DNA of 36,480 bases from Eubacteriales bacterium (GCA_045653865.1 JAZOMJ010000065.1:1-36480), one strand, 5' to 3'. Positions 708 to 33,790 are shown, counted from the first letter of the stretch. Notes: generated by a model from the letters alone, not told the origin. Made by a program: numbers and translations.

Positions 708-724
708 ATACGTAATAAAATATA

Positions 725-842
725 TCTTATCAAGAGTAACGTAGTGACAGGCACGATGATGTTACAGCAACCTGCTTTTCCAAGTAAGGTGCTAAATCCT
801 GTTAGATGAGAGCCAAATGCTCCGTCTGTGCGGAGTTTTTTT
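725..842 (+). ncRNA. SAM-I (S-box) riboswitch, compact variant without P4, with terminator/antiterminator
   Basis: P1 TCTTATC(725-731)/GATGAGA(805-811); ATCAAGAG, GCAACC and GGTGCTAAATCC motifs; L2 ACAGG pairs with CCTGT (798-802); terminator GCTCCG..CGGAGT plus T run (819-842); directly upstream of metK. Confidence 0.9.
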
Positions 843-896: not shown

Positions 897-2087
897 ATGA
901 ACGAATTGAACAGAAAATTATTTACAAGTGAATCTGTTACCGAGGGACATCCCGATAAAATCAGTGATAAGATTTCGGATGCTGTCCTTGACGAAATGTT
1001 GCGTCAAGACCCTATGTCTCGTGTTGCTTGCGAGACCTTTTGCACCACGGGTCTTGTATGCGTAATGGGTGAGGTTACCACCCGTGCGGATGTCGATATT
1101 CAACGCATTGTTCGCGAAACCGTTCGCGAAATCGGTTACGACCGTGCAAAATACGGCTTTGACTGCGATAGCTGTGCTGTTATTATTTCTTTGCACGCAC
1201 AATCCCCCGACATTGCAATGGGTGTTGACAAATCCTTTGAAGCAAAGAACGGTGAAGCCGATGAATTCGACATCGGTGCCGGTGACCAAGGCTTGATGTT
1301 CGGTTACGCTTGCAACGAGACCCCCCAGCTGATGCCCCTGCCCATTTCTCTTTCGCACAAGCTGGCGCTCCGCCTGACCGAGGTGCGCAAGAACGGTACA
1401 CTTTCTTATCTGCGTCCCGACGGCAAAACCCAAGTTACCGTTGAATACGACGAGAACGGCAAGCCCGTTCGCGTAGATACCGTTGTTATTTCCTCTCAGC
1501 ACAGTGCCGACGTGAGCACCGAGCAAATACGTGAGGATATCAAGCGCGAGGTCATTCTGCCCATCATTCCCGCAGATATGATGGACGATGAAACCAAGAT
1601 TTACATCAACCCCACCGGTCGCTTTGTTGTAGGCGGTCCCGCAGGTGACACAGGTCTTACCGGCCGTAAGATCATCGTTGACACCTACGGTGGATATGCA
1701 CGCCACGGCGGCGGTGCTTTCTCGGGCAAAGACCCCACAAAGGTTGACCGTTCCGCTTGCTATGCGGCTCGTTACATTGCCAAGAACATTGTAAAAGCAG
1801 GACTTGCCGACAAGTGCGAGGTTCAGGTTGCATACGCCATTGGTGTAGCAAAGCCCGTATCGGTTCTCATCGATACCTTTGGCACCGCTCGCGTAGCAGA
1901 GTCCGCTATTGAAGCCAAGGTAGCAGAGCTTGTTGACCTGCGTCCTGCGGCAATCATCAAGAGATTCGATTTGCGTCGCCCTATCTACTGCCAAGTAGCG
2001 GCTTACGGCCACATGGGCAGAGAAGACCTCGACATTCCGTGGGAAGCTTGCGACCTCGTCGACGAACTCAAAACACTTTTGAAGTAA
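897..2087 (+). CDS. metK: S-adenosylmethionine synthetase
   Basis: [19 protein letters not shown] and GGGAFSGKD signatures; RBS GAGGAG; upstream SAM riboswitch. Confidence 0.98.
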
Positions 2088-2140
2088 TTTTGAAATTACA
2101 CCCAACAAAAGATTGAAAACTTTATAAGCAATGCGTTTTA

Positions 2141-2262
2141 GCCTCCCTTGTGTAAAGGGAGGTGGCGCGCGGAGCGCGACGGAGGGATTGTTTTTTGCTT
2201 GGTATAAGAACAATCCCTCAGTCAGCCTTGCGGCTGCCAGCTCCCTTTACACAAGGCAGCCT
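2141..2262. repeat. Inverted-dimer palindromic intergenic repeat (CCTTGTGTAAAGGGAG..GAGGGATTG family)
   Basis: Left GCCTCCCTTGTGTAAAGGGAGGTGGC..GACGGAGGGATTGTT (2141-2192) versus reverse complement of right GGCTGCCTTGTGTAAAGGGAGCTGGC..GACTGAGGGATTGTT (2209-2262). Confidence 0.75.
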
Positions 2263-2303
2263 TTTTTGTATGTAGACCAATTGCGTAAGAAAGGAGAGAA
2301 CAA

Positions 2304-4553
2304 ATGGCAGATTTTGATGCGAATTTTATGCAGGGGCCAATGGATGAAATTGGTCTTGTTAAGCTTTCGGGCAGTATCGAGCGCGTAATTTATGCAAACG
2401 ATGAAAACGGATACGCCATTTGCGATCTCGGCACCGATACCGACGAGCTTGTCACCATCACGGGCACGCTCCCCTACATTGGCGAGGGCGACCTCGTTAC
2501 GGTTTGGGGCAAGTGGGTACACAATCCCAAATACGGACGTCAATTTAAAGTAGAGCAAGCCGAAAAGCAACTGCCTGCCGACAAAGCATCCATGCTTCGT
2601 TATCTCGGTTCGGGAACCATTAAGGGCATCGGCCCCAAAATTGCACAGCGCATCATCGATGAATTTGGCGAGGAGGCGTTTGACGTCATTGAAAATCACC
2701 CCGATTGGCTTGCCGAAATTCACGGCATCACCCCCAAGCGTGCAAGGGCGATTTCCGAGGAGTTCAAAAACAAAGCGGGCATTCGTTCGGCAATGCTTTT
2801 CTTCCGCGAATATTTCGGAGCGGTGACCACGGTACGCATCTACAAAAAATGGGGCAGCAGTGCGGTGGACGTTGCCAAAAACAACCCCTATATGCTCTGT
2901 GAGGAGATTGAAGGCATCGGCTTTGAGCGTGCCGACCGTCTGGCTTCCAAATTGGGCATGGCGCCCGATTCTCCCGACCGTCTTGCCAGCGGTGTTAAGC
3001 ATCTGCTCACCACCAATGCGCATCAAAACGGGCACGTTTGCCTGCCGCGAGAGCAGTTGGTTGCAGGGGCGGCAAAGCTGCTCGAAGCTCCCGCCGAAGC
3101 GGTGGATGCGGCAATTTCTGCTCTCATCAGAGCCAAAAAGCTTTGCACCGTCTATTGGGATGGGGTGCACTACGTTTATGATAAACAATCCTTTGAGGAT
3201 GAAAAATACATTGCTCGCAAGCTGACACTGCTTGATAAGGTTTGCGAGGTGATGAACACCGAAAACATTGATGCCTTTATCAAGCGTGAGGAACGCGAGA
3301 GCGGCATGCAATACGCAAAAGAGCAACGTCGTGCTATTTTTGCCGCGCTGGAGAGCGGTGTTATGCTGCTCACAGGTGGTCCCGGAACGGGTAAAACCAC
3401 GGTTGTGCGCGCTCTGTTGCACATTTTTGACAGTATGGGGCTTCAAGTTGCCCTTTGCGCTCCCACGGGACGTGCGGCAAAGCGACTTTCGGAGTCGACC
3501 TCTTGCGAGGCAAAAACCATCCATCGCTTGCTCGAATACGGCGGCGGAGAGACGGGCGGTCACGCACACTTCCAACGAGATGAAAACAATCTGCTTGACG
3601 AGCACGCCATCATTGTGGATGAAGCATCCATGGTCGATAATGCGCTGATGGCATCTCTTTTGCGCGCCATCAAGCCGGGCGCAAGACTTGTCATCATCGG
3701 GGATGCCGACCAGCTCCCCTCGGTGGGAGCGGGCAACGTGCTTTGCGATTTGTTGCAAAGCGAAAAATTTGCCACTGTTCGACTCAACGAAATTTTCCGT
3801 CAGGCGCAACAAAGCCTGATTGTTACCAATGCCCACGCCATCAATCAAGGTCTTATGCCGCGTCTTGATGCAAAGGACAACGATTTCTTCTTTTTGCCGC
3901 GTGCCAACGACCGCGAAATTGCCGAAACCGTGGCACAGCTGTGCAGTATTCGTCTGCCGCGCACCTATGGAGAAATGGGCGTTAAGGGTGTGCAGGTCAT
4001 CGCTCCCTCTCGCAGAGGAGAAACCGGCACCGAGCATCTCAACGTGCTCTTGCAAAGTGTCCTCAACCCTGCAAACGACTATAAGCGTGAGTATAAATTC
4101 CGCGAGATCGTCTTTCGCGAAGGCGACCGCGTGATGCAAACCAAAAACAACTATGATCTTTACTGGGAGCGCGAGGACGGCTCCTGGGGCAATGGCGTTT
4201 TCAACGGTGATATTGGCACCATTCTGCGCATCGATCCCTCGGATGAGAAGATGCAAGTTGAATTTGACGACCGCGTTGCCGATTATGACTTTAATATGCT
4301 GGATGAACTCGAGCCTGCCTATGCCGTAACGGTGCATAAGAGTCAAGGTAGCGAATATCCGATTGTTGTGTTGCCCGTGGGGTCTGCCGCCGAAATGTTG
4401 CTCTCTCGCAACCTCTTTTACACGGCAGTTACCCGTGCGCAAAATATGGTCATTTTGGTGGGACGTGAAGAAAAAGTGCGCACCATGGTGGAAAATAACC
4501 GCCAATCGATGCGCCACACAGGTCTTTGCCGCATTTTGCGTGAGGTGGAGTGA
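2304..4553 (+). CDS. recD2: ATP-dependent RecD2/TraA-family SF1B DNA helicase
   Basis: HhH IKGIGPK, Walker A GGPGTGKT, APTGRAAKR, VDEASM, GDADQLPSVG, TVHKSQGSE, YTAVTRA. Confidence 0.95.
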   Translation: MADFDANFMQGPMDEIGLVKLSGSIERVIYANDENGYAICDLGTDTDELVTITGTLPYIGEGDLVTVWGKWVHNPKYGRQFKVEQAEKQLPADKASMLRYLGSGTIKGIGPKIAQRIIDEFGEEAFDVIENHPDWLAEIHGITPKRARAISEEFKNKAGIRSAMLFFREYFGAVTTVRIYKKWGSSAVDVAKNNPYMLCEEIEGIGFERADRLASKLGMAPDSPDRLASGVKHLLTTNAHQNGHVCLPREQLVAGAAKLLEAPAEAVDAAISALIRAKKLCTVYWDGVHYVYDKQSFEDEKYIARKLTLLDKVCEVMNTENIDAFIKREERESGMQYAKEQRRAIFAALESGVMLLTGGPGTGKTTVVRALLHIFDSMGLQVALCAPTGRAAKRLSESTSCEAKTIHRLLEYGGGETGGHAHFQRDENNLLDEHAIIVDEASMVDNALMASLLRAIKPGARLVIIGDADQLPSVGAGNVLCDLLQSEKFATVRLNEIFRQAQQSLIVTNAHAINQGLMPRLDAKDNDFFFLPRANDREIAETVAQLCSIRLPRTYGEMGVKGVQVIAPSRRGETGTEHLNVLLQSVLNPANDYKREYKFREIVFREGDRVMQTKNNYDLYWEREDGSWGNGVFNGDIGTILRIDPSDEKMQVEFDDRVADYDFNMLDELEPAYAVTVHKSQGSEYPIVVLPVGSAAEMLLSRNLFYTAVTRAQNMVILVGREEKVRTMVENNRQSMRHTGLCRILREVE

Positions 4554-21831: not shown

Positions 21832-22869
21832 TTATTTCATCAATCTTTTTTTATCGCGTTCTATTTCAATGATGGCGGCATCATCGTCGCAATATCCCCA
21901 TTCGTCCTTGCAGCAGGTAATCATTCTGTCATAGGTTTGGGTCGCTTTTTCGGTATCGCCTAAAATTTCGTAGATGATGGCAATGCCGTGCAAAGCATCG
22001 GTAAAGCGCGGCTTTTTCTCCATTTCCCAAGCGCGCTCATAGCATTCAATGGCTTCTTTGTATTCGCATTTGCGTGCGTGGTACTGCGCGTATTCAAAAA
22101 CAAAGTCACAGTTTGTGCCAAATTGCTTTTCGGCATCTGCCATAATGGCATCGGCTTTTGCAACCTCAAACTCTGCCAAGGCAAAAGCCGCCTCATAAAC
22201 GGGCACCAATGCCGGCTTGTGGGCAGGGAGCGTTTTGTAGATTTCAAAATACTCTCGCGCCTCTTTTGTGCGGTGCTCGGCAATGAGATTGTCCATCACC
22301 TCGTAATAGGGAAGCGGCGTTTTTGGAGTGACGTTATCATTTTCGATCACACGTTTGTAAAAATCAATAACGGTTGAGCGGTTGTTAATGTTCCAATCCC
22401 AAGTCACCGCGCCCTCGGCTTTTTGCAAGAGCCATTGACATTCCTTGATTTCGGGAGCGAGCATAATCGCCTCGCGTGCGTATTTGCTGACTTTGCGAGA
22501 GTCGGAGAGGATGCGATGGTGATAGAGATGCGCGAGCAAACTCAACACCTTTCGTCTGTCGGTGTGCTCGTCGAGTTGGTTTTTCAAAAAGCTTTCATAC
22601 TCATAAAAGATATCGTTTGCGAATTCCTCTTCAATATCCAAGCGTTTTTCAATGCGAGAGAGCTTTTGGTCGACGGTGAGGTCGAATAGCTCGTCAATGG
22701 TTACGCCAAGCGCGGTAGCCAAGGCTGGCAAAAGAGAAATATCGGGCATCGTGGTGGCGGTTTCCCATTTCGAAACCGACTGCGCGCTAATGCTGAGCGC
22801 GCCTGCAAGTTGCTCTTGGGTGAGTCCTGCTTTGTAGCGGAGTTGTTTGATTTTGTTTCCAATTTCCAT
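21832..22869 (-). CDS. XRE-family HTH regulator with C-terminal TPR-like helical repeats
   Basis: IGNKIKQLR..GLTQEQLA..ISAQSVSKWE..PDISLLP..LGVTIDELF; TPR-like YKEAIECYERAWE and DALHGIAIIYEILGDTEKA; minus-strand promoter TTGATT(22942-22937)-17-TATAAT(22919-22914). Confidence 0.85.
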   Translation of the reverse strand: MEIGNKIKQLRYKAGLTQEQLAGALSISAQSVSKWETATTMPDISLLPALATALGVTIDELFDLTVDQKLSRIEKRLDIEEEFANDIFYEYESFLKNQLDEHTDRRKVLSLLAHLYHHRILSDSRKVSKYAREAIMLAPEIKECQWLLQKAEGAVTWDWNINNRSTVIDFYKRVIENDNVTPKTPLPYYEVMDNLIAEHRTKEAREYFEIYKTLPAHKPALVPVYEAAFALAEFEVAKADAIMADAEKQFGTNCDFVFEYAQYHARKCEYKEAIECYERAWEMEKKPRFTDALHGIAIIYEILGDTEKATQTYDRMITCCKDEWGYCDDDAAIIEIERDKKRLMK

Positions 22870-23082: not shown

Positions 23083-24405
23083 TTACTTCACAAATTCATT
23101 ATAAATAGCGGTCAACGCCTTTTCGAGGTCGTGTTCTTCCACGCCGATGATGATGTTGAGCTCGCTCGAGCCCTGGTCGATCATGCGGATGTTGATGCCT
23201 GCGTTGGAGATTGCCATAAACACGCGAGCAGCGGTACCTTTGGCTTTTACCATACCGCGACCAACAACTGCGAGGAGCGCAAGACCGTCCTCGATAACGA
23301 TGCTATCGGGATGCACACGCTTGTTAATGGAGGAGAGAATACGCTCACGCTTAAACTCATCCTTAATGCAAGCGGTCGAAACAACAATGCTCATGGTATC
23401 AACACCGGAGGGCAGATGCTCAAAGGAAACGTCATTGTCTTCAAGTACGTCCAGCACACGGCGGCCAAAGCCGATTTCGGAGTTCATCATATCCTTTTCG
23501 ATGTTGATAACCGAAAATCCGCGTCTGCCTGCAATACCGGTAATGATGTGTTCGCCATCATATTCCGAGGTGGCGGAAACAATCATAGTGCCGGGAGCGG
23601 AGGGCTCGTTGGTGTTGCGGATGTTGATCGGAATACCTGCATAGCGAACAGGGAAGATAGCATCCTCGTGCAAAACAGATGCGCCCATATAGGAGAGCTC
23701 GCGGAGCTCACGGTAGGTGATGGTCTTAATGGGCAGGGGATCGTCAACAATACGGGGGTCAGCCATCAGGCAACCCGAAACGTCTGTCCAGTTCTCATAG
23801 AGCTCTGCTTCAGCGGCACGCGCAACGATAGAGCCGGTAATATCCGAACCACCGCGACTAAAGGTTTTAATGGTGCCGTTGGGCATAACGCCATAGAAGC
23901 CGGGAATAACGGCATATTGATGCTTTTTGAGTTCCTCGCGCATCACAGCATTGGTCTTTTCTTCATCGAATGTGCCGTTTTCGCGGAAGTAGATAACCGA
24001 CTCGGCATCGATGAAATCAAACTTGAGGTATTTTGCAAGAATAAGGGAGTTGAGATACTCACCGCGGCTTGCGGCAAAATCCTGACCGGAGTAATGCTCA
24101 ATAGCGTTGCGGATGTAGTTCAACTCTCCGGAAATATCAAAGTCAATACCAAGGTCTTCGATAATGGAGTTATAACGCTCGCAAATCTTCTCGTAGTATT
24201 CACCAATGTTTTTGCCTTGGCGTACAAGCTCATAGCAATGGTAGAGCATATCGGTTACTTTGGTGTCCTCTTTAAATCTCTTGCCGGGGGCAGAGGCAAC
24301 CACATAGCGGCGCGCAGGGTCAGCCGCAACAATTGCGGCAACACGGCGGAACTGGTTGGCATCTGCCAAGGAAGAACCACCGAATTTAACAACTTTCATT
24401 TCCAT
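23083..24405 (-). CDS. lysC: Aspartate kinase (amino acid kinase domain plus two ACT domains; YclM/LysC-like)
   Basis: VVKFGGSSLA, VASAPG, SRGE, TFSRGGSDITG, WTDVSG, ADPRIV, ELSYMGASVLH; promoter TTGACA(24496-24491)-17-TATAAT(24473-24468). Confidence 0.92.
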   Translation of the reverse strand: MEMKVVKFGGSSLADANQFRRVAAIVAADPARRYVVASAPGKRFKEDTKVTDMLYHCYELVRQGKNIGEYYEKICERYNSIIEDLGIDFDISGELNYIRNAIEHYSGQDFAASRGEYLNSLILAKYLKFDFIDAESVIYFRENGTFDEEKTNAVMREELKKHQYAVIPGFYGVMPNGTIKTFSRGGSDITGSIVARAAEAELYENWTDVSGCLMADPRIVDDPLPIKTITYRELRELSYMGASVLHEDAIFPVRYAGIPINIRNTNEPSAPGTMIVSATSEYDGEHIITGIAGRRGFSVINIEKDMMNSEIGFGRRVLDVLEDNDVSFEHLPSGVDTMSIVVSTACIKDEFKRERILSSINKRVHPDSIVIEDGLALLAVVGRGMVKAKGTAARVFMAISNAGINIRMIDQGSSELNIIIGVEEHDLEKALTAIYNEFVK

Positions 24406-24537
24406 AGTTTGGGTTCCTTTCGTCTCACCGAGATTGTGAGATGGAGTCGAATTTCATTACTTACTATATTATACGAGAAAGTATGGCATTTGTCAAGAAG
24501 AAAAATGACAAAACCCGACGGAATTATCACAAAATAC

Positions 24538-24566
24538 TTGACAAATATTCTTTGTAGTGATATAAT
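24538..24566 (+). promoter_or_regulatory. Consensus sigmaA promoter for the T-box leader
   Basis: TTGACA, 17 nt, TG-a-TATAAT. Confidence 0.85.
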
Positions 24567-24581
24567 AATCAGTAATAATAT

Positions 24582-24831
24582 AAAGACATTGACCGAAAAC
24601 AAGTAGAAAGCCTTTGCGTGCACAGAGAGCTGTCGGGTGGTGCAAGACAGTGACGGGGGGCTTTTGAATACAGTTCGCGAGTTTCGTACCGATGCCAAAT
24701 GGAGGTAGGCTACGACGGGCAGCCCGTTACAGCGCGCAAAGTGGTTAGACTGCAAGGCAGTCAACAACAGAGGTGGTACCGCGGTATTTTCTCCGTCCTC
24801 TGCGCACGTCGCAGAGGGCGGTTTTTGTTTT
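24582..24831 (+). ncRNA. T-box riboswitch (transcriptional), probable Tyr (UAC) specifier
   Basis: GA motif, AGTA, AGAGAG and GGTGCAA stem I motifs; GAA-TAC-A at 24666-24672; CCGTTA (stem IIA/B); stem III GACTGC/GCAGTC; AGAGGTGGTACCGCG T-box (24769-24783); terminator CCGTCCTCTGCG/CGCAGAGGGCGG plus T run. Confidence 0.93.
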
Positions 24832-24852
24832 TTGTCGAAAAAGGAGAACAAC

Positions 24853-26487
24853 ATGACAATTATTGATTTGTTAAACCAAAATGCATCGCTTTACGAGGAT
24901 GAAACAGCACTTGTTGAAATCAACCCTTGCTTTGAGCCCGAAAGCCGCTTGACCTGGAAGGATTATTCCTTGATGCAACCCGAGCCCGGCAAGCCGTTCC
25001 GCCGCTCCTTAACTTGGGGCGAGTTCAATGCCAAGGCAAACCGTTTTGCAAACCTGCTTCTCACACGCGGATGCCGCCGTGGCGATAAGGTTGCCATTCT
25101 TTTGATGAACTCCATCGAGTGGTTGCCCATCTATTTCGGTATTCTCAAGGCAGGTGCCATTGTTGTGCCGCTCAACTACCGTTATGTGGCAGATGAAATC
25201 AAATATTGTCTGGAAAAGGCAGATTGCTCTATGCTTGTTTTCGGCCCCGAGTTTGTTGGCCGTATGGAGCAGATTTGCGACCGCTTGCCCGATGTAAAGC
25301 ATATGTTCTACGTTGGCGAGGATTGCCCCTCCTTTGCCGACAGCTACGATAAAATGATTGGCTACTGTGATGCACATGCACCCGAGATGCAAATTGAGGA
25401 GAGCGACGATGCCGCTATTTACTTCTCTTCGGGCACCACAGGCTTCCCCAAGGCGATTTTGCACGCACACCGCAGTCTCATTCACGCGGCACGCGTTGAG
25501 CACAACCACCACGGTCAAACCCACAACGACGTATTCCTCTGCATCCCGCCCCTTTATCACACGGGCGCAAAAATGCATTGGTTCGGCTCTTTGATGAGCG
25601 GTAGCAAGGCGGTTCTTCTCAAGGGAACACGCCCCGAGTGGATTTTCAAGGCCGCATCCGACGAGCGTTGCTCCATTGTTTGGTTGCTCGTTCCGTGGGC
25701 GCAGGATATGCTCGATGCCATCGATCGCGGTGACGTTAATCTCGAGGATTATGACCTCGATGCTTGGAGACTGATGCACATCGGTGCACAACCCGTTCCT
25801 CCCTCTCTCATTCGTCGCTGGCTCAAGATTTTCCCCAAGCACCAATATGACACCAACTACGGTCTTTCCGAGTCTATCGGCCCCGGTTGCGTACACCTTG
25901 GCGTGGAGAACGTCGAAAAGGTTGGCGCCATCGGCAAGGCGGGCTACGGCTGGCAGGTTTGCATCATCGACGAACATGGAAACGTGGTTCCTCGCGGCGA
26001 GGTTGGTGAGCTTTGCGTCAAGGGCCCCGGTGTGATGAAGTGCTACTACAAAGACAAAGACGCCACCGACGAAATTTTGCACGGTGAATGGCTCCTCACC
26101 GGAGACATGGCAATGGAAGACGCGGACGGCTTTATTTTCCTCGTTGACCGCAAAAAAGACGTTATTATCACGGGTGGTGAAAACATCTATCCCGTACAAA
26201 TAGAAGATTTTATCCGCAAGCACGACGCTGTTAAGGACGTAGCCGTTATCGGCTTGCCCGAGCCCCGTCTTGGCGAAATCGCCGCTGCCATCGTAGAACT
26301 CAAAGAGGGTTATACGATGACACAAGAGGAATTGGAACGCTTCTGCGCACCTCTCCCTCGTTACAAGCGTCCTCGTCGCATCATTTTTGCCGAGGTTCCG
26401 CGCAATCCTACGGGTAAAATCGAAAAGCCGAAGCTTCGCAGCATTTATTGTGGCGAGAGTCTTGTGGCACAGCAGATTGAAGGCTGA
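24853..26487 (+). CDS. Class I adenylate-forming acyl-CoA synthetase, substrate unknown
   Basis: YFSSGTTGFPK, PPLYHTG, YGLSE, TGD, DRKKDVIITGGENIYP, PRNPTGKI; ATG 24853 after AAGGAG. Confidence 0.92.
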   Translation: MTIIDLLNQNASLYEDETALVEINPCFEPESRLTWKDYSLMQPEPGKPFRRSLTWGEFNAKANRFANLLLTRGCRRGDKVAILLMNSIEWLPIYFGILKAGAIVVPLNYRYVADEIKYCLEKADCSMLVFGPEFVGRMEQICDRLPDVKHMFYVGEDCPSFADSYDKMIGYCDAHAPEMQIEESDDAAIYFSSGTTGFPKAILHAHRSLIHAARVEHNHHGQTHNDVFLCIPPLYHTGAKMHWFGSLMSGSKAVLLKGTRPEWIFKAASDERCSIVWLLVPWAQDMLDAIDRGDVNLEDYDLDAWRLMHIGAQPVPPSLIRRWLKIFPKHQYDTNYGLSESIGPGCVHLGVENVEKVGAIGKAGYGWQVCIIDEHGNVVPRGEVGELCVKGPGVMKCYYKDKDATDEILHGEWLLTGDMAMEDADGFIFLVDRKKDVIITGGENIYPVQIEDFIRKHDAVKDVAVIGLPEPRLGEIAAAIVELKEGYTMTQEELERFCAPLPRYKRPRRIIFAEVPRNPTGKIEKPKLRSIYCGESLVAQQIEG

Positions 26488-26502
26488 AAAAGGAGAACCG
26501 TT

Positions 26503-28251
26503 ATGAAAAAGTTAATGCTTGGCAACGCCGCCGTAGCGCAGGGCGCATACGAGGCAGGCGTACATCTTGTTTCCTCTTACCCGGGCACGCCCAGCACCGA
26601 GATTACCGAGTGCATGGCAACCTACCCTGCAGAAGAGGTATTTGTAGAGTGGGCACCCAACGAAAAGGTAGCCGCAGAGGTTGCCATTGGCGCATCCAAC
26701 GCGGGCGGCAGAGCCATGACCTGCTGCAAGCACGTAGGTCTTAACGTGATGGCAGACCCTCTCTTTACCAACAGCTACACCGGTGTTCACGGCGGTATGG
26801 TTTACTGCGTAGCAGATGACCCCGGTATGCATTCCTCGCAAAACGAGCAGGATTCTCGCCACTACGCAAGAGCGGCAAAGATTCCGATGCTCGAGCCCTC
26901 CGACTCTTTGGAGTGCCGCGACTATACCAAGCTCGCCTTTGATTTGAGCGAGCAGTTTGATACTCCCATTTTGATTCGCCTTTCCACGCGCGTTTCTCAC
27001 TCCCAAAGTCTTGTAGAGCTTGGCGAGAGAGAAGTACATCCCGTAAAGGAATACCAAAAGAACATTGCAAAGAACGTTATGATGCCTGCAAACGCCATCA
27101 AGCGTCACGTTGTGGTAGAAGAAAGAACCAAAAAGATTGCAGAATACGCCGCAAACTGTTCCTTTAACACGGTTGAAGATAACGGCAGTGATATTGGCGT
27201 TATCTCGGCAGGTATTGCTTATCAATACGCAAAAGAGGCTCTTGGAGATAAGGTCAACTACTGCAAGCTTGGCATTGTTTGGCCGCTTTCCGAAAAGCTA
27301 CTGGGGGATTTTGCCGCAAAGTGCAAAACCGTTTACGTTATCGAAGAACTCGATCCTTTCATTGAGGATGCTTGCCGCGCGATGGGCATTGACGTAAAGG
27401 GCAAGGAGCTCTTTACTATGCTTGGCGAGTATACTCCCTCTATGATTCGCAAGGTTGTTCTCGGTGAGGATGCCGCTCCCTTTGCTTCTCTTAAAGAAGC
27501 CATCCCCGGCCGTCCCCCTGTTATGTGTGCGGGTTGTCCGCACCGCGGCACATTCTACGTGCTCAACAAACTCGGTGTTACCGTTTCGGGTGACATCGGT
27601 TGCTACACCCTCGGTGCCGTTGCTCCTCTGGCGGCAGTTGATAGCACCATTTGTATGGGTGCATCTGTTAGCGCGGCACACGGTATGGCAAAGGTGCAGG
27701 GTAAGGAGTTTGCAAGCAAGCTCGTCTCTGTTATCGGGGACTCCACCTTTATGCACTCCGGCATTACCGGACTTGTTGACATCGTTTACAACAAGGGCAT
27801 CAACACCGTTCTCATCCTCGATAACTCTATCACGGGTATGACAGGACATCAAGACAACCCCACAACAGGCAAGACCATTCGCGGTGAGGCTACCCGTCAG
27901 GTAGACCTGATCAAGCTTTGCCAAGGCATTGGTGTTGAGAGAATTACGGTTGCCGATCCCTTTGACGTGAAGAATTTTGAAAAGGTTGTTAAAACCGAGC
28001 TTGCAACCGACGAGCCCTCGGTTATCATCGCGCAACGCCCCTGCGCGCTCCTCAAGAGCGTGAAATATTCGGGCAACTGCGTTATCACCGAAAAATGCCG
28101 CAAGTGCAAGCTTTGCATGAAGCTTGGTTGTCCTGCTATCAGCATCGACAAAAATAGCGGTGCGGTTCACATCGACACAACACAATGCAACGGTTGCGGT
28201 CTTTGCGTAGGTGTTTGCCCCTTTGGAGCAATTGAAAAGGAGGAGGCATAA
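26503..28251 (+). CDS. iorA: Indolepyruvate:ferredoxin oxidoreductase alpha subunit
   Basis: GNAAVA, YPGTPSTEI, NEKVA, KHVGLNV, SSQNEQD, CAGCPHR, GDIGCY, GDSTF.HSG, MTGHQ, two C-terminal 4Fe-4S motifs. Confidence 0.95.
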   Translation: MKKLMLGNAAVAQGAYEAGVHLVSSYPGTPSTEITECMATYPAEEVFVEWAPNEKVAAEVAIGASNAGGRAMTCCKHVGLNVMADPLFTNSYTGVHGGMVYCVADDPGMHSSQNEQDSRHYARAAKIPMLEPSDSLECRDYTKLAFDLSEQFDTPILIRLSTRVSHSQSLVELGEREVHPVKEYQKNIAKNVMMPANAIKRHVVVEERTKKIAEYAANCSFNTVEDNGSDIGVISAGIAYQYAKEALGDKVNYCKLGIVWPLSEKLLGDFAAKCKTVYVIEELDPFIEDACRAMGIDVKGKELFTMLGEYTPSMIRKVVLGEDAAPFASLKEAIPGRPPVMCAGCPHRGTFYVLNKLGVTVSGDIGCYTLGAVAPLAAVDSTICMGASVSAAHGMAKVQGKEFASKLVSVIGDSTFMHSGITGLVDIVYNKGINTVLILDNSITGMTGHQDNPTTGKTIRGEATRQVDLIKLCQGIGVERITVADPFDVKNFEKVVKTELATDEPSVIIAQRPCALLKSVKYSGNCVITEKCRKCKLCMKLGCPAISIDKNSGAVHIDTTQCNGCGLCVGVCPFGAIEKEEA

Positions 28252-28252
28252 A

Positions 28253-28822
28253 ATGAGCACGAAAAATATTATGATTGTAGGCGTTGGCGGACAGGGAACA
28301 CTCCTTGCCAGCCGTATTCTCGGCAATGCCGTTATCCAAAAAGGATACGACGTGAAGGTCTCCGAGGTTCACGGAATGAGCCAAAGAGGCGGTAGCGTTG
28401 TTACCTACGTTAAGTTTGGCGATGCTGTACACTCTCCCATCATCGATAAGGGCGAGGCAGACATCATCCTCGCGTTCGAATGTCTCGAAGCCTATCGCGC
28501 TCTCCCTTGGCTCAAAAAGGACGGCGTAATGATTGTCAACGATCAAGAAATCAACCCCATGCCAGTCATTACGGGTGCGGCTGACTATCCCGAAAATATT
28601 CAGGATAAGTTGTGTGAAGCTGACCATGTGATCTTTATCAATGCGCTTCATTTGGCGCGCAAGGCAGGAAACGTAAAAGCAGTGAACGTTGTTTTGATTG
28701 GTGAATTGGCAAAGAATACCGAAATTTCCTATGAGGAATGGGTAGATGCCATTAAAGCCACTGTTCCGCCCAAATTCTTAGAGGTAAACCTCAAGGCGTT
28801 TGATTTGGGCTACAATTTGTAA
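28253..28822 (+). CDS. iorB: Indolepyruvate:ferredoxin oxidoreductase beta subunit
   Basis: GVGGQG, SEVHGMSQRGGSV, NLKAFDLG; ATG 1 nt after the iorA stop. Confidence 0.95.
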   Translation: MSTKNIMIVGVGGQGTLLASRILGNAVIQKGYDVKVSEVHGMSQRGGSVVTYVKFGDAVHSPIIDKGEADIILAFECLEAYRALPWLKKDGVMIVNDQEINPMPVITGAADYPENIQDKLCEADHVIFINALHLARKAGNVKAVNVVLIGELAKNTEISYEEWVDAIKATVPPKFLEVNLKAFDLGYNL

Positions 28823-28881
28823 TCATCACATACGCGAAAAAATAAAATTTTACTCTGAAAATCGAAAGAAGGTACCATACT

Positions 28882-30192
28882 ATGAGCTTCCTCAATCGCG
28901 AAATTGAATGTATGCCCCGCGAGGAGCTGAAAAAAATCCAAAGCGAACGTTTGTGCCAAACGGTGCGCCACTGCTACGAGAACGTAGAGTGCTTCCGCAA
29001 CCGCATGAACGAAAAGGGACTGACCCCTGATGACATCCACGGAATTGAAGACATCCATTTGTTGCCGTTTTCTTACAAAAAAGATCTGCGTGATTATTAT
29101 CCTTACGGTCTTTTTGCCGTGCCGATGCAGGACGTTGTCCGTTTGCACGCTTCCTCGGGTACTACCGGCAAGAGAATTGTAGTAGGCTACACCAAAAACG
29201 ACTTGGATATGTGGGACGAATGCGTTGCACGTATGCTGACCGCCCTTGGTGTTACCAAAGATGATTTCGTGCAGGTTGCTTATGGCTACGGCCTCTTTAC
29301 CGGTGGTTTTGGCTTGCATGGCGGTGCACAAAAAATCGGTGCCACCATCATTCCCATTTCTTCCGGCAACACCGCAAACCAAATTCAAACCTTGATCGAT
29401 TTTGGCGCAACCGTGCTTTGCTGCACTCCCTCTTATGCCATGTACCTTGGCGAAGAGGTTGAGCGTCTTGGCGTAAAGGATCAGCTCAAGCTCCGCGTAG
29501 GCATTTTCGGTGCCGAGCCTTGGAGCGAAAATATGCGCCATCAAATCGAGGATAAGCTCGGGATCAAGGCATACGATATTTACGGTCTTTCCGAGGTTCT
29601 CGGCCCCGGTGTTTCGGGCGAATGCCCCGAGCAGGCAGGCATGCACGTTTGGGAAGATAACTTCTACGTTGAAACCATCGATCCTGATACGGGCGACGTT
29701 CTCCCCGAGGGCACTCCCGGTGAGTTGGTATTCACATCGCTCACCAAAGAGGCGTTCCCGGTAATCCGCTACCGCACAAGAGACATCTGCACCCTCATTC
29801 CCGAAACCTGCAAGTGCGGACGTACCCACATTCGCATGGGCAAGCCCGACGGACGTACCGACGATATGCTCATCATTCGCGGTGTCAACGTATTCCCGTC
29901 TCAAATTGAGGAGGTTCTTCTCAAGGTCAGCGGTGACCAAATCACCCCCAACTACCAAATTGTTGTTGACCGCGTCAACAACGTAGATACCTTTGATATC
30001 AACGTTGAGATGAGCGAAGCGTTCTTCTCGGATAATATCAAAGCAATCGAAAAACTCGAAAAGCGCATCACTGAAGATCTGCGCTCTATGCTTGGCATCA
30101 GCGCAAAGGTTCACCTGGTTAATCCCAAGTCCATCGTTCGCAGCGAGGGCAAGGCAAAGCGCGTAATTGATAACCGCAAGGGCAAAATATAA
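28882..30192 (+). CDS. paaK: Phenylacetate--CoA ligase family protein
   Basis: YPYGLFA, HASSGTTGK, YGYGLFTGG.G.H.G, GAEPWS, DIYGLSE, RYRTRD, GRTDDM.IIRGVNVFPSQIE, EGKAKRVID. Confidence 0.93.
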   Translation: MSFLNREIECMPREELKKIQSERLCQTVRHCYENVECFRNRMNEKGLTPDDIHGIEDIHLLPFSYKKDLRDYYPYGLFAVPMQDVVRLHASSGTTGKRIVVGYTKNDLDMWDECVARMLTALGVTKDDFVQVAYGYGLFTGGFGLHGGAQKIGATIIPISSGNTANQIQTLIDFGATVLCCTPSYAMYLGEEVERLGVKDQLKLRVGIFGAEPWSENMRHQIEDKLGIKAYDIYGLSEVLGPGVSGECPEQAGMHVWEDNFYVETIDPDTGDVLPEGTPGELVFTSLTKEAFPVIRYRTRDICTLIPETCKCGRTHIRMGKPDGRTDDMLIIRGVNVFPSQIEEVLLKVSGDQITPNYQIVVDRVNNVDTFDINVEMSEAFFSDNIKAIEKLEKRITEDLRSMLGISAKVHLVNPKSIVRSEGKAKRVIDNRKGKI

Positions 30193-30207
30193 GAGAGGAG
30201 AGAGATT

Positions 30208-30624
30208 ATGATTATTAAGCAATTGTCTGTATTTTTGGAAAACAAACAAGGTCGCATTTGTGCGGCAGCCGATCTTTTGGCGCAAAACAACATCAACATT
30301 CGTGCACTCTCCCTGGCAGATACCTCCGAGTTTGGTATTCTGCGCCTGATTGTAGATAAACCCGAGGAGGGCAAAAAGATTCTTACCGAGGCAGGATTGG
30401 TCGTTCGTGTAACCGACGTTCTTTCTCTCACAATGGATGACACCCCGGGCGGAACGCTTGGAGTTCTTCGTCTGTTGTCCGAGAGCGGCATTGGCGTTGA
30501 GTATATGTATGCGTTTGCCGGCAAGTCGGGCGCGGTTATGATCATTCAAGCCGAAGACCTTGAAGCGGCAGAGGGCATTTTGCAACGCGGTGGTTTCCGT
30601 CAAGCCGAAATCGAGGGTATCTAA
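30208..30624 (+). CDS. Tandem ACT-domain protein
   Basis: QLSVFLENKQG..INIRALSLADTSEFGILRLIV, D.PGG, EYMYAF; typical neighbour of paaK and ior genes. Confidence 0.9.
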   Translation: MIIKQLSVFLENKQGRICAAADLLAQNNINIRALSLADTSEFGILRLIVDKPEEGKKILTEAGLVVRVTDVLSLTMDDTPGGTLGVLRLLSESGIGVEYMYAFAGKSGAVMIIQAEDLEAAEGILQRGGFRQAEIEGI

Positions 30625-30653: not shown

Positions 30654-31361
30654 ATGTTGAAAATTTTAGGATTGGGAAATAGCTTTTCTTGGGATGCGAC
30701 AACCTATCTTGATCGTGTTGCAGGTGACCTTTACGTCCGCAATCTGCACATTGGTGGTTGCAGCTTGGAAATGCACGTTGATAAAATCAAAAACAAAAAG
30801 GCTTGGTATGAGTTCCAAGCACAAGGTGTTAAAATCGGTGAAGCAACTGTGAGTGCCAACGATATCATCGCAAGCGAGGATTGGGACTATATCACTGTTC
30901 AGCAAGTAAGCCACTATTCGGGCATGTACGAAACCTACGAGCCTCACCTGACAGAGGTGTTGGAGTTCATTCGCAAAACCTGCCCCAATGCAAAAATCAT
31001 TTGGCACCAAACTTGGTCTTATGCTAAGGATAGCACGCACCCCGGCTTTGCAAACTACAATCACAATCAAGAATTGATGTTCTCCAAAATTGAGGAGTGC
31101 TCGCACCGTGCCGTTAAGGAACACAATCTCGACGGCATCCTCGAGGTGGGCAAGGCAATTCAAACCCTGCGCCGCACCCTCACGCCCGACGGCACCGATT
31201 TCTGCCGCGACGGCTTCCACCTTTCCTACGATTACGGCAGATATGCCGCAGCATACGTTTGGGCAAAGTTCTTTGGTACCGAGATCACCGACTTTATGCC
31301 CGAGGGAGCAGACCCCGCACGCATTGCCGAAATTCGTCGCATCATCGACGAGCTTTCATAA
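30654..31361 (+). CDS. SGNH/GDSL-like hydrolase (DUF4886-like)
   Basis: KILGLGNSFS (Ser), WDYITVQQVS, HQTWSY, RDGFHLS (DxxH). Confidence 0.8.
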   Translation: MLKILGLGNSFSWDATTYLDRVAGDLYVRNLHIGGCSLEMHVDKIKNKKAWYEFQAQGVKIGEATVSANDIIASEDWDYITVQQVSHYSGMYETYEPHLTEVLEFIRKTCPNAKIIWHQTWSYAKDSTHPGFANYNHNQELMFSKIEECSHRAVKEHNLDGILEVGKAIQTLRRTLTPDGTDFCRDGFHLSYDYGRYAAAYVWAKFFGTEITDFMPEGADPARIAEIRRIIDELS

Positions 31362-31375
31362 AAGGAGAGGCTAAC

Positions 31376-32251
31376 ATGCTTTACACACTGCAAAACGATG
31401 TCCTGACCGTTCAAATCAGCGATATAGGAGCTGAAATTCATTCGGTTGTGCGCGACGGTTGCGAATATATGTGGGTGGGAGACCCTGCCTATTGGTCGTC
31501 TCACGCGCCCCTTTTATTCCCCGTATGCGGTAGGTTTTTTGAAGCCAAATACACCGCAAACGGCAATACCTATGAAATTCCCTGCCACGGTTTTATTCGC
31601 AAGGCACCCTTGGCGCTTGAGTGCATCAACAATACCTCTATCTGCTTCCGCGTAGAATCCACCGAGGAAACAAAAAAGCTCTATCCCTTTGACTTTGTGC
31701 TCAAAATTTGGCACATCCTTGAGGGTGAGAGCGTAACCACACGCTTTGAAATAGAAAACGCGGGAGATGTCACTCTGCCTGCAACCGTAGGCGGTCACCC
31801 CGGTTTCAACGTGCCTCTTGGTGGGGAAGGGGAATTTGAAGACTACTATCTCGAGTTTGGCAAAACCTGCTCGCCCAACCAAATCGGTATTTCGCCTCGT
31901 GGGCTCTTCACGGGCAAAATGACGGCATACCCTTTGGCGGATGGCAACAAATTGCCGCTCTCGCACAAGCTCTTTGAGGTTGACGGCGTGTTCCTTTCCC
32001 GTATGGATAGCACCGTCACGCTCAAATCGAACAAAACCACACGTGCAGTCACCTTAGAGTACCCCGATATGCCATATCTTGGCGTTTGGCACGCCGCCGC
32101 GTGCGAGGCACCCTTTGTGTGCATCGAGCCTTGGTGCGGGCTCCCCGGCTATGACGGAGAGATGGAAGACATCAACACGCGCCACGATATGTTCCACATT
32201 CTGCCCGGCAAAACGCAGGTCGCGCAGTTTAAAATGACCTTTCACGCATAA
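31376..32251 (+). CDS. Aldose 1-epimerase family protein (LacX-like)
   Basis: GAEIHS, W.GDPAYW..HAPLLFP, HGF.R, YPFDF, GGHPGF, FVCIEPWCG; ATG 31376 after AAGGAG. Confidence 0.9.
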   Translation: MLYTLQNDVLTVQISDIGAEIHSVVRDGCEYMWVGDPAYWSSHAPLLFPVCGRFFEAKYTANGNTYEIPCHGFIRKAPLALECINNTSICFRVESTEETKKLYPFDFVLKIWHILEGESVTTRFEIENAGDVTLPATVGGHPGFNVPLGGEGEFEDYYLEFGKTCSPNQIGISPRGLFTGKMTAYPLADGNKLPLSHKLFEVDGVFLSRMDSTVTLKSNKTTRAVTLEYPDMPYLGVWHAAACEAPFVCIEPWCGLPGYDGEMEDINTRHDMFHILPGKTQVAQFKMTFHA

Positions 32252-32281
32252 TCAAACAATCGATTGGAGAGGGAAGAGACA

Positions 32282-33694
32282 ATGAAGAAAATTTCTATTT
32301 TGCTTGCCATTGGCATTTTGTTGGGGCTTTTGCCGGGATGTGATGGTGGAGTCAAAACGCCTACTATTACCACAACCGAAGCAACTACACCAAGCGAAAC
32401 AACACCTGCTACAACCGAACCGGAGGAGACCACTTCTGCCGAAACCACACTCGAAGAGACCACTCCTGCACCGGAAGCGGACACCACACCAAAGAGTTTT
32501 CATCTTGAAATCGGCGATTCTATCGTTGTTATGCAGGGAGACGTTGGCGACAACGCGTGGGGACACTATCAGTTCCCGGGGCTTGCTTATACACTTGACG
32601 GAAACATTGTTGCCACTTGGAACTATACAAGCGACACCATTGGGGATTATTTGAACACAGTAAAACAAAAGGTCTCTACCGACGGAGGTCTTACTTGGAG
32701 TGCAGATGAAAGCTTGTGCTCCATTCCCGATAAATTTCAAATGTCTAACGGCAAGTATTTTACGGGATTTAGACGTGCCAACGCGCACTATGCAACTTGG
32801 CAAAACGAATACACCCCCGCTATGACGTGGGGAACAAATGACGGCTACAAACTCTTTTTTGCCGAGGATCTCCCCAAAAACGAGGATACCACCGTGTGGG
32901 CTTCCGAATATGATCCCACTACAGGCGAGACGGTAGAGTTTGAGTGCACCATCAACTGGCCGCACGCGGCTCTTACCGAGTTCCCAGGCGGTAATATCTA
33001 CCCTATGACACAAATGTTTAGTTTGAGCCAAGATAGCATCATTATTGTGGATGGTGTTATGTATTTGGCGATGTATTTCTATGGCTTTTATTCTTATTCT
33101 CCCACTAGAGAAACTGCAGTCAATAGCTATAGTAAATACTATTCTTGCTATGTATTCTCCTCCGAGGATAATGGACGCACGTGGAATTTTCTTTCACAAC
33201 TCACTCCCTATGGCACAAAGATCACCTTCTCCGAGGGACTTTGTGAGCCTTGCCTCAACATTATGCCCGATGGATCTATTGTGATTTTGATGCGTAGCGG
33301 AGGCCCCACAACAGGCGATAAAGGCTATCCCTGCTATTGGGCACGTTCTACCAATCATTGTGAGTCTTGGAGCGTTATTAAAAAGTTTGACGATATTGGC
33401 GTTCTTCCGCAAATGGTAACGCTTGGCAGTGGTGTCACCATCGCTACCTATGGCCGCCCCTATATGCGCATTCGCGCTACATCCGACCCAACGGGTAAAG
33501 CTTGGCAAAAGGCAGAAACCTTTGATATGTATTCCTGCGAGAATCAATCCTCTTGCTACTATACAGACCTGCTTGCTCTCGACGATACCCACGCACTCTG
33601 GATATATTCCGATTTTAAATATCCTAACGCCGATGGCGTTCCCGTAAAGTCAATTATCGTCCGTGTCATCACGGTTGTGTTTGATGGGGAATAA
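32282..33694 (+). CDS. Asp-box (BNR) sialidase-fold lipoprotein with Thr/Glu/Pro-rich linker
   Basis: MKK signal peptide plus LPGC lipobox; T/E/P linker; Asp-boxes STDGGLTW, SEDNGRTW, STNHCESW, SDPTGKAW; CEP..MRS and SCYY motifs. Confidence 0.8.
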   Translation: MKKISILLAIGILLGLLPGCDGGVKTPTITTTEATTPSETTPATTEPEETTSAETTLEETTPAPEADTTPKSFHLEIGDSIVVMQGDVGDNAWGHYQFPGLAYTLDGNIVATWNYTSDTIGDYLNTVKQKVSTDGGLTWSADESLCSIPDKFQMSNGKYFTGFRRANAHYATWQNEYTPAMTWGTNDGYKLFFAEDLPKNEDTTVWASEYDPTTGETVEFECTINWPHAALTEFPGGNIYPMTQMFSLSQDSIIIVDGVMYLAMYFYGFYSYSPTRETAVNSYSKYYSCYVFSSEDNGRTWNFLSQLTPYGTKITFSEGLCEPCLNIMPDGSIVILMRSGGPTTGDKGYPCYWARSTNHCESWSVIKKFDDIGVLPQMVTLGSGVTIATYGRPYMRIRATSDPTGKAWQKAETFDMYSCENQSSCYYTDLLALDDTHALWIYSDFKYPNADGVPVKSIIVRVITVVFDGE

Positions 33695-33756: not shown

Positions 33757-33790
33757 AAAAACCGCACCGTCAATAAAGACGGTGCGGTTT
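33757..33790. terminator. Likely bidirectional terminator between convergent genes
   Basis: AAAAACCGCACCGTC-AATAAA-GACGGTGCGGTTT. Confidence 0.85.

Follow-up and report, generated by a model that had tools for sequence, protein, structure and literature searches.

Probable tyrosine T-box control of an acyl-CoA ligase/indolepyruvate:ferredoxin oxidoreductase operon in a Eubacteriales bacterium: a candidate salvage route from aryl acids to aromatic amino acids

The leader RNA and the operon behind it

The DNA analysed here is a 36,480-nucleotide (nt) stretch from a Eubacteriales bacterium (GCA_045653865.1 JAZOMJ010000065.1:1-36480; "the window" below means this whole stretch). Its subject is a T-box leader RNA that precedes, on the plus strand, the genes for an AMP-forming acyl-CoA ligase, the two subunits of indolepyruvate:ferredoxin oxidoreductase (IOR; IorA and IorB), a PaaK-like ligase and an ACT domain-pair protein. 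This arrangement is probably best explained as a tyrosine-specific T-box operon for the starvation-induced salvage of aryl acids. Such a reading suggests that genes usually regarded as "catabolic" are turned on during tyrosine shortage in this gut member of the Clostridia and rebuild aromatic amino acids from the fermentation acids of other microbes. The features on which it is built are as follows.

24538..24566, plus strand: sigma-70 promoter of the leader, TTGACA-17 nt-TG-TATAAT (12/12 consensus, extended -10 TG)
24580..24803, plus strand: T-box leader RNA (Stem I, Stem II, IIA/B, Stem III, antiterminator), RF00230
24669..24671, plus strand: specifier codon UAC (very probably Tyr) in the loop GAA-UAC-A-G, from sequence reading and orthologous leaders
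24774..24780, plus strand: T-box bulge UGGUACC, whose variable base U would pair with discriminator A73
24793..24831, plus strand: intrinsic terminator (12-bp stem, 5-nt loop, U-run), competing with the antiterminator
24853..26487, plus strand: AMP-forming acyl-CoA ligase, 544 amino acids (PF00501, PF13193)
26503..28251, plus strand: IorA, IOR alpha subunit with thiamine pyrophosphate (TPP) and 2x[4Fe-4S] (TIGR03336)
28253..28822, plus strand: IorB, IOR beta subunit (NF005325, PF01558), with the ATG at 28253 taken from the translation
28882..30192, plus strand: predicted PaaK-like arylacetate-CoA ligase, AMP-forming (TIGR02155 below cut-off, PDB matches)
30208..30624, plus strand: ACT domain-pair protein, 138 amino acids (PF19571, 96.6 bits)

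A preliminary description of the locus, made from the sequence, had reported a complete transcriptional T-box with GAA-UAC-A in the specifier loop and a UGGUACC bulge, and this was borne out in every element. The RF00230 match (24580-24803, plus strand) is untruncated, extends over the full model (positions 1-219) and reaches 112.3 bits (E 3e-24), the gathering score being 93. The coordinate at which that description set the start of the feature, 24538, is the first base of the promoter, which lies 14 nt ahead of the first Rfam T-box base. As read from the sequence, Stem I contains a specifier loop in which AACAAGUA on the 5' side (AGUA) faces GAAUACAG on the 3' side (GAA), together with the AG bulge AGAGA and the distal loop GGGUGGUGCAAG. 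The 3' side of the specifier loop runs from GAA (24666-24668) through UAC (24669-24671), A (24672) and G (24673) into the lower stem UUCG (24674-24677). The antiterminator, AGAGG[UGGUACC]GCGG...CCGUCCUCU, carries a 7-nt bulge, and its 3' strand, CCGUCCUCU, is re-used as the 5' arm of the terminator. The terminator hairpin (24793-24821) has 12 pairs, 9 of them G-C, with a folding energy of about -24.8 kcal/mol, and is followed by the U-run; a ribosome-binding site and the ATG at 24853 lie 3' of it. By its sequence the leader is an ordinary class I, transcription-attenuating T-box, with putative tRNA-dependent antitermination. A search for RNA sequencing runs covering the stretch turned up none, the single candidate run being probably DNA.

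The gene content given earlier, ligase-iorA-iorB-paaK-ACT, agrees with the Pfam and NCBIfam matches, with the qualification that the last ligase can be called PaaK-like only. Both IorAB subunits exceed their NCBIfam equivalog cut-offs (TIGR03336, 710.4 bits vs 650.9 for IorA, which also matches Pfam POR_N, TPP_enzyme_C and Fer4; NF005325, 288.2 bits vs 230 for IorB). The nearest PDB entry of the first ligase is FadD13 (3r44, E 4e-69), so that by sequence it is a generic FadD13-like enzyme; we treat it as a candidate (hydroxy)arylacetate-CoA ligase. The second ligase scores 547.1 bits with TIGR02155, under the equivalog cut-off of 646.3, and is very near solved phenylacetate-CoA ligase structures (2y27, E 1e-135; 4r1l, E 4e-115), hence the label PaaK-like, which assigns no substrate. 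According to their domain and structure matches, both ligases of the operon are AMP-forming. A complex prediction for the PaaK-like and ACT proteins scored 0.21 against a mark of 0.32 and counts neither for nor against their association. The operon includes no aminotransferase gene, as had been noted before, and four matches to class I/II aminotransferases (the best of 261 bits) are found elsewhere in the genome.

The specifier register in orthologous leaders

The preliminary description had read the specifier as UAC (Tyr) while pointing out that a shift by one base would give ACA (Thr). The ambiguity is real, as ACA falls in the codon slot of Rfam's own alignment. In the control T-boxes of the same genome (leuA CUC, trpB-like UGG and ileS AUC) a single purine separates the codon from the stem, and the Rfam codon occupies model positions 5-7 of the eight-position loop. 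The register is therefore undecidable from the leader alone and calls for comparative data.

These were drawn from relatives of the first ligase in species-representative genomes (598 in all), of which the best 80 loci were searched for T-boxes by nhmmer and for gene order by tblastn. A same-strand T-box was found in 26 of the 80 loci, ahead either of the ligase or of a symporter gene that is followed by the ligase; the T-box-bearing genomes of the set are all metagenome-assembled. Throughout the resulting 27 orthologous leaders (the window and these 26) UAC is invariant, as is GGUGGUA and hence the UGGU bulge. The base(s) following UAC vary, being A in 16 leaders, C in 6, AG in 3 and AC in 1, with one leader (L043) unparsed; another (L049) was read by eye.

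The structural part of the comparison used an alignment of Stem I from 26 leaders (A4, with L043 left out). RNAalifold applied to a MAFFT alignment recovered the distal hairpin only, and the lower stem was therefore supplied by hand; lower and distal helices were set in this way and their pairs counted. In these helices 94.7% of cells are paired and 11/11 pairs have changes on both sides; the observed score was reached in 0/500 shuffles, and slid partners were 31-52% paired. The pair that decides the register (19-100 of A4) joins the base two after UAC with the A that precedes ACAAGUA. In 23/26 leaders this is a standard pair, and it is broken only in the window, L007 and L023, which argues for GAA-UAC-N-stem as the ancestral layout, as in the controls. 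The layouts of the lineage's control T-boxes are ACC-G for thrS, UUC-A for pheS, AUC-A for ileS, CUC-G for leuA and UGG-G for the trpB-like gene.

The reading of the specifier as ACA, one base later, so that the switch would sense tRNA-Thr(UGU), is highly unlikely in the light of this comparison. It draws on the Rfam alignment, in which ACA stands at the codon positions of the leuA, trpB-like and ileS controls with the purine G before the stem, and on the fact that the shifted register gives ACN in every ortholog (ACA, ACC or ACG). However, ACN would abut the stem without a spacer in 23/26 orthologs, unlike all controls, and the U before AC is invariant while the supposed wobble base varies. 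Moreover, the invariant UGGU is complementary to A73, not to U73. tRNA-Tyr(GUA) has A73 in 4/4 relatives where it was found (G001, G008, G017 and G025). On the other hand, tRNA-Thr ends in U73-CCA in 3/3 genes of this genome, U73 is also present in tRNA-Thr(UGU) of five T-box-bearing relatives, and such a tRNA would mismatch the bulge. The trpB-like T-box, whose UGGC matches G73 of tRNA-Trp, shows that bulge and discriminator go together in this lineage. In fact, one relative (G017) offers both kinds of switch side by side: its thrS T-box has the layout ACC-G-stem and UGGA, vs UAC-A-stem and UGGU in its ligase T-box (L061). We also know of no link of these genes with threonine. The opposite shift, to AUA (Ile), was rejected, as this triplet is not conserved and becomes UUA in GAAUUAC leaders.

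Four observations weigh against the tyrosine assignment. Rfam aligns GAAUACAG without a gap, making ACA the codon and G the next purine. The post-codon base is a pyrimidine, C, rather than a purine in 6 leaders. The window, L007 and L023 have a G after UAC-A that faces an A, so that the top pair of the lower stem is broken; in the window this G stands for the usual U and leaves an A.G mismatch. Finally, no tRNA-Tyr is among the 42 tRNA genes tallied in the genome, an assembly that is 82% complete and from which Ile and Ala tRNAs are also missing.

The A.G mismatch atop the specifier stem could be taken to disable tRNA sensing, in which case the leader would be decaying or constitutive. The top pair is indeed broken in only 3/26 aligned leaders, the window included. 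We consider this extremely unlikely: the leader keeps every other conserved T-box element and exceeds the Rfam gathering score by a wide margin; the closest relative (L007, ligase 95% identical) is in the same state, so the state is maintained; and working control T-boxes, such as that of pheS, can also have eight unpaired bases in the specifier loop. Overall, comparison resolves the register, and the specifier is very probably Tyr. The assignment made in the preliminary description is thus upheld by UAC and UGGU in 27/27 leaders, a single spacer base in 23/26, the A73 vs U73 discriminators and the UGGA of the thrS T-box.

Distribution of the T-box and direction of the pathway

IorA-IorB lies 3' of the ligase in 49 of the 70 loci with at least 2.6 kb of downstream sequence, and in 17 of the 20 such loci that have a T-box. 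Of the 60 loci with at least 5 kb downstream, 28 have the full ligase-IorAB-PaaK-ACT set. Both PaaK and ACT are present in 30 loci; PaaK stands alone in two, each at a truncated end, and ACT alone in none. The PaaK-ACT pair is absent from four T-box loci that keep ligase-IorAB (L021, L023, L042 and L073), which makes the first ligase the constant partner of the Tyr T-box.

Two additional genes were observed within related operons. A conserved open reading frame of ~220-230 amino acids with no Pfam match lies between iorB and the PaaK-like gene in seven relatives (L019, L033, L043, L053, L054, L060 and L074) and is absent from the window. Its identity with the 220-residue protein of the VOR operons described below was considered and rejected, the two being dissimilar (BLASTP E 8.4 for the ~225-residue product). 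In three T-box loci (L032:4684-5496, L039:2935-3723 and L059:4708-5496) an Amidohydro_2 (PF04909) gene lies between symporter and ligase; reversible aromatic acid (de)carboxylases belong to this superfamily.

The symporter is itself part of the regulatory picture. In 11 T-box loci the leader is followed by an SSF sodium:solute symporter gene and then by the ligase. In the genome under study the symporter ortholog is on another contig (C88, gene from L004:1843), shares 59-76% identity with the copies inside the operons, and has a Tyr-type T-box of its own in front of it (L004:1458-1710; UAC-A-C, UGGUAAC); G001, the closest relative, is split in the same way (L104). The tyrS gene (contig C144) has no T-box, and within the assembly Tyr T-boxes serve only the symporter and the ligase/IOR operon.

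Other T-boxes of the lineage are attached to genes of a similar kind. In two relatives (G025 and G005) an Ile T-box (AUC-A) precedes a helix-turn-helix (HTH)-cupin-AMP ligase, after which come a Val T-box (GUA-G or GUC-G), a second such ligase, a 220-residue protein, a 2-oxoacid:ferredoxin oxidoreductase (VOR) composed of VorB and beta and gamma subunits, and the branched-chain aminotransferase IlvE. VorB (NF005507, 535 bits) and IlvE (NF009897, 482 bits) are both above cut-off, and the HTH-cupin-AMP-binding ligases of the Ile/Val units measure ~770-800 amino acids (L119 on G025 C43, L123 on G005 C123, L125 on G001 C110). G001 has the same Ile and Val T-boxes and ligases up to its contig end, and in the genome under study an Ile T-box with its ligase (C17, L006:1501-1739, minus strand) is cut by a contig end. 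The combination of a starvation switch, an acid-activating ligase, a 2-oxoacid:ferredoxin oxidoreductase and a final transaminase looks sensible only if these operons make Ile and Val out of 2-methylbutyrate and isobutyrate. The aromatic operon has the same design, minus the transaminase. T-boxes controlling such acid-salvage genes make up 3/6 of those in the genome and 5/9 in G001; one further T-box in each controls a stand-alone TrpB-like enzyme.

The latter is seen on contig C16, where a Trp T-box (L002:1501-1748; UGG-G, UGGC) stands before a TrpB-like gene (1803-3176; NF009057, 679 bits). Another Trp T-box (L107; UGG-A), in the locus L124 (G005 C76), precedes an L-lactate/malate dehydrogenase-like gene followed by genes for an ABC substrate-binding protein and an ABC ATPase. 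This may be a further salvage unit, for example one leading from indolelactate to indolepyruvate.

T-boxes are known to turn their genes on in response to uncharged cognate tRNA. In the mechanism that we propose for the operon of the window, transcription would start at the consensus promoter and, with charged tRNA-Tyr, the 12-bp terminator would form and stop it ahead of the genes. Uncharged tRNA-Tyr would pair through its anticodon GUA with the specifier UAC in Stem I and through its free 3' end, A73-CCA, with the UGGU bulge; the antiterminator would thus be stabilised and RNA polymerase would read into ligase-iorA-iorB-paaK-like-ACT. An arylacetate would be taken up, the likely importer being the SSF symporter with its own Tyr T-box. 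The most likely substrate is 4-hydroxyphenylacetate, put forward on the sole ground that the sensor is for Tyr; phenylacetate or indoleacetate may serve as well. The AMP-forming ligases would convert the arylacetate to its CoA thioester, IorAB would turn the thioester, CO2 and reduced ferredoxin into arylpyruvate by reductive carboxylation, and a housekeeping aminotransferase would complete the amino acid. AMP-forming ligase chemistry favours thioester synthesis and cannot conserve thioester energy. The reductive direction of IOR is proposed only because the regulation is of the starvation type and the ligases are AMP-forming. The preliminary description also gave the ACT protein a possible part in feedback control. 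Its salvage route gains support from the second Tyr T-box, before the symporter, and from the Ile/Val T-boxes before ligase-VOR-IlvE operons.

Several observations speak against this proposal. The first ligase has no NCBIfam equivalog, that is, no family-level substrate assignment. The symporter could carry tyrosine itself (its best NCBIfam matches are PutP and PanF, all below cut-off). A T-box is present in only 26 of the 76 loci having at least 350 nt of upstream sequence; 11 of the nhmmer-negative loci were rechecked with Rfam at the gathering threshold and none of them gave a T-box. Some T-box-less operons are nearer to that of the window (76-80% ligase identity) than many T-box-bearing ones. 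De novo synthesis also appears to be widely retained, since tyrA is found in 22/26 T-box genomes, so there is no auxotrophy for the switch to make good. Lastly, IOR is reversible, and the available part of PMC13285125 reports the IOR of B. thetaiotaomicron as making phenylacetate from Phe.

The distribution data lead us to reject the T-box as a general feature of the operon, given the count of 26/80 and the 11 Rfam-negative rechecks. The rechecked loci include Ruminococcus flavefaciens YAD2003 and R. albus KH2T6, where the ligase homologues have no adjacent IOR. The genes upstream of 13 T-box-less loci (transporters, malic enzyme, response regulators and pyruvate kinase) are mutually unrelated and reveal no common regulator.

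The reversibility of IOR raises the alternative that the genes are catabolic, converting arylpyruvate to arylacetyl-CoA, and that their induction in tyrosine shortage serves to rebalance the aromatic pool or to provide reduced ferredoxin. The available text of PMC13285125 refers to a first description of IOR in peptide fermentation and lets the B. thetaiotaomicron enzyme contribute to phenylacetate formation, and 50/76 orthologous operons are without a T-box. This alternative nevertheless appears quite unlikely. A T-box is on when its amino acid is short, a state in which degradation of arylpyruvate would be counterproductive; both ligases, being AMP-forming, would conserve no thioester energy; an IlvE of biosynthetic type closes the parallel Ile/Val T-box operons; and a symporter belongs to the same regulon.

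A different possibility accepts the salvage but takes tyrosine as a mere sentinel: all three aromatic amino acids would be regenerated, with phenylacetate or indoleacetate as the main substrates via the PaaK-like enzyme, or with the first ligase acting on some other aromatic acid. IORs are stated to accept phenyl-, hydroxyphenyl- and indolepyruvate (in the available part of PMC13285125), the operon has two different ligases of which the PaaK-like one resembles phenylacetate-CoA ligases, and the Geobacter iorAB-paaK genes are listed under tryptophan in the accessible portion of PMC2700814. We regard it as rather unlikely, as 27/27 leaders read Tyr and none Phe or Trp, and PaaK-ACT is absent from four T-box loci, leaving the first ligase as the constant Tyr-linked part.

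The relation of the salvage route to de novo synthesis was assessed from gene content. A loss of shikimate or tyrA genes, which the preliminary description had offered as a check, did not emerge: aroC is present, and tyrA is found in the closest relative as well as in the T-box genomes counted above. In the 82%-complete genome itself TyrA (PF02153) was not found, and prephenate dehydratase gave a weak, partial match. Among 50 genomes of the 80 loci, TyrA is present in 45 (22/26 with a T-box and 23/24 without). Tyrosine auxotrophy as the reason for the switch is rejected on these counts and on the presence of aroC; with tyrA kept in most T-box genomes, the route would supplement de novo synthesis rather than replace it.

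A broader proposal, to which we give about even chances, is that the Tyr T-box is one arm of a lineage-wide acid-salvage regulon of gut and rumen Oscillospirales-type Clostridia. Tyr, Ile and Val (perhaps also Trp) T-boxes would each gate a dedicated acyl-CoA ligase feeding IOR or VOR, and whichever amino acid had its tRNA uncharged would be rebuilt from the matching fermentation acid of neighbouring microbes.

Surroundings, significance and relation to known systems

Further features of the window are listed here.

724..812: S-adenosylmethionine (SAM) riboswitch, RF00162, 68.9 bits, the only other Rfam match in the window
897..2087: metK, TIGR01034, 587 bits, directly 3' of the SAM riboswitch
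21832..22869, minus strand: HTH_3 plus TPR-repeat protein of XRE type, 345 amino acids, upstream of aspartate kinase
23083..24405, minus strand: aspartate kinase, NF006540, 566 bits, divergent from the T-box operon
24468..24496, minus strand: aspartate kinase promoter, 12/12 consensus
30654..33694: DUF4886, aldose 1-epimerase-like and BNR-repeat genes, 3' of the ACT gene

The gap between the ACT and DUF4886 genes is 29 nt, and the first strong terminator occurs only at 33759-33790. We do not count DUF4886 and the genes after it as part of the operon because DUF4886 lies beside the operon in 0/80 related loci.

IOR/PaaK clusters are routinely annotated as amino acid catabolism, and the present finding argues for their re-annotation. 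The direction of IOR in gut bacteria shapes models of how phenylacetate, 4-hydroxyphenylacetate (the p-cresol precursor) and indoleacetate are produced and consumed, and a riboswitch that would fire only on uncharged tRNA-Tyr would carry in itself regulatory evidence that this direction is anabolic. Along with the Ile/Val T-box ligase-VOR-IlvE operons, the locus offers concrete candidate genes for the classic rumen reductive carboxylations. Should the regulon proposal hold, it would supply long-missing genes and control logic for rumen physiology of the 1960s, and the specifier codon would annotate the substrate of each orphan ligase, providing a simple rule for guessing ligase substrates. The leader, tRNA and ligase form a tractable test system, and the finding casts 60-year-old physiology as a gene-level model open to testing.

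As an RNA mechanism the switch is textbook. The Bacillus subtilis tyrS leader of Grundy and Henkin is reportedly the founding Tyr-specific T-box, and it shares with the present leader the RF00230 family, the UAC specifier, the UGGU bulge matching A73, the terminator/antiterminator switch and the AGUA/GAA loop. It controls tyrosyl-tRNA synthetase, whereas the Tyr T-boxes described here control a ligase/IOR operon and a symporter.

On the metabolic side, Allison and co-workers are said to have shown in the 1960s that rumen bacteria reductively carboxylate phenylacetate and branched-chain acids. The present case matches this physiology, in which volatile and aryl acids serve gut anaerobes as precursors of Phe, Leu, Ile and Val. 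In the literature we found no definition of the genes and regulation behind these reactions, and the cultured Ruminococcus strains of our set differ from the window in having a ligase homologue without adjacent IOR or T-box. Formation of Phe from phenylacetate by rumen cultures is reported in the accessible part of PMC7356843.

The closest enzymatic parallel to the reductive reaction proposed here is in Methanococcus maripaludis, where aryl acids feed a second pathway to aromatic amino acids via IOR (Porat et al. 2004, as cited in the available part of PMC4162585) and IorAB is likewise proposed to run reductively from arylacetyl-CoA to arylpyruvate. As far as the available text goes, that route is archaeal, has no T-box and is supported by genetic and labelling evidence, whereas the evidence here is regulatory and comparative only.

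The Bacteroides iorAB genes are similar in that IOR is colocalised with a PaaK-type (AMP-forming arylacetate-CoA) ligase, which is argued to point to a biosynthetic role of this IOR, "similar to methanogenic archaea" (available part of PMC13285125, 2026). In contrast to that cluster, for which the same text gives no riboswitch, the operon of the window adds a FadD-like ligase and a sensor of amino acid starvation.

The Geobacter iorAB-paaK genes, finally, are entered under tryptophan where leaders of amino acid biosynthesis are tabulated (available part of PMC2700814). They too are treated as biosynthetic and have a conserved 5' sequence ahead of them; that part of the source, however, does not speak of the 5' element as a T-box, and it names tryptophan as the amino acid. 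Within the literature searched we found no link of a T-box with indolepyruvate or ferredoxin oxidoreductase, and the Geobacter paper makes none with paaK; T-box databases or survey supplements may list such leaders. Overall, both the RNA and the enzyme families are known, and it is the link between them that appears to be new.

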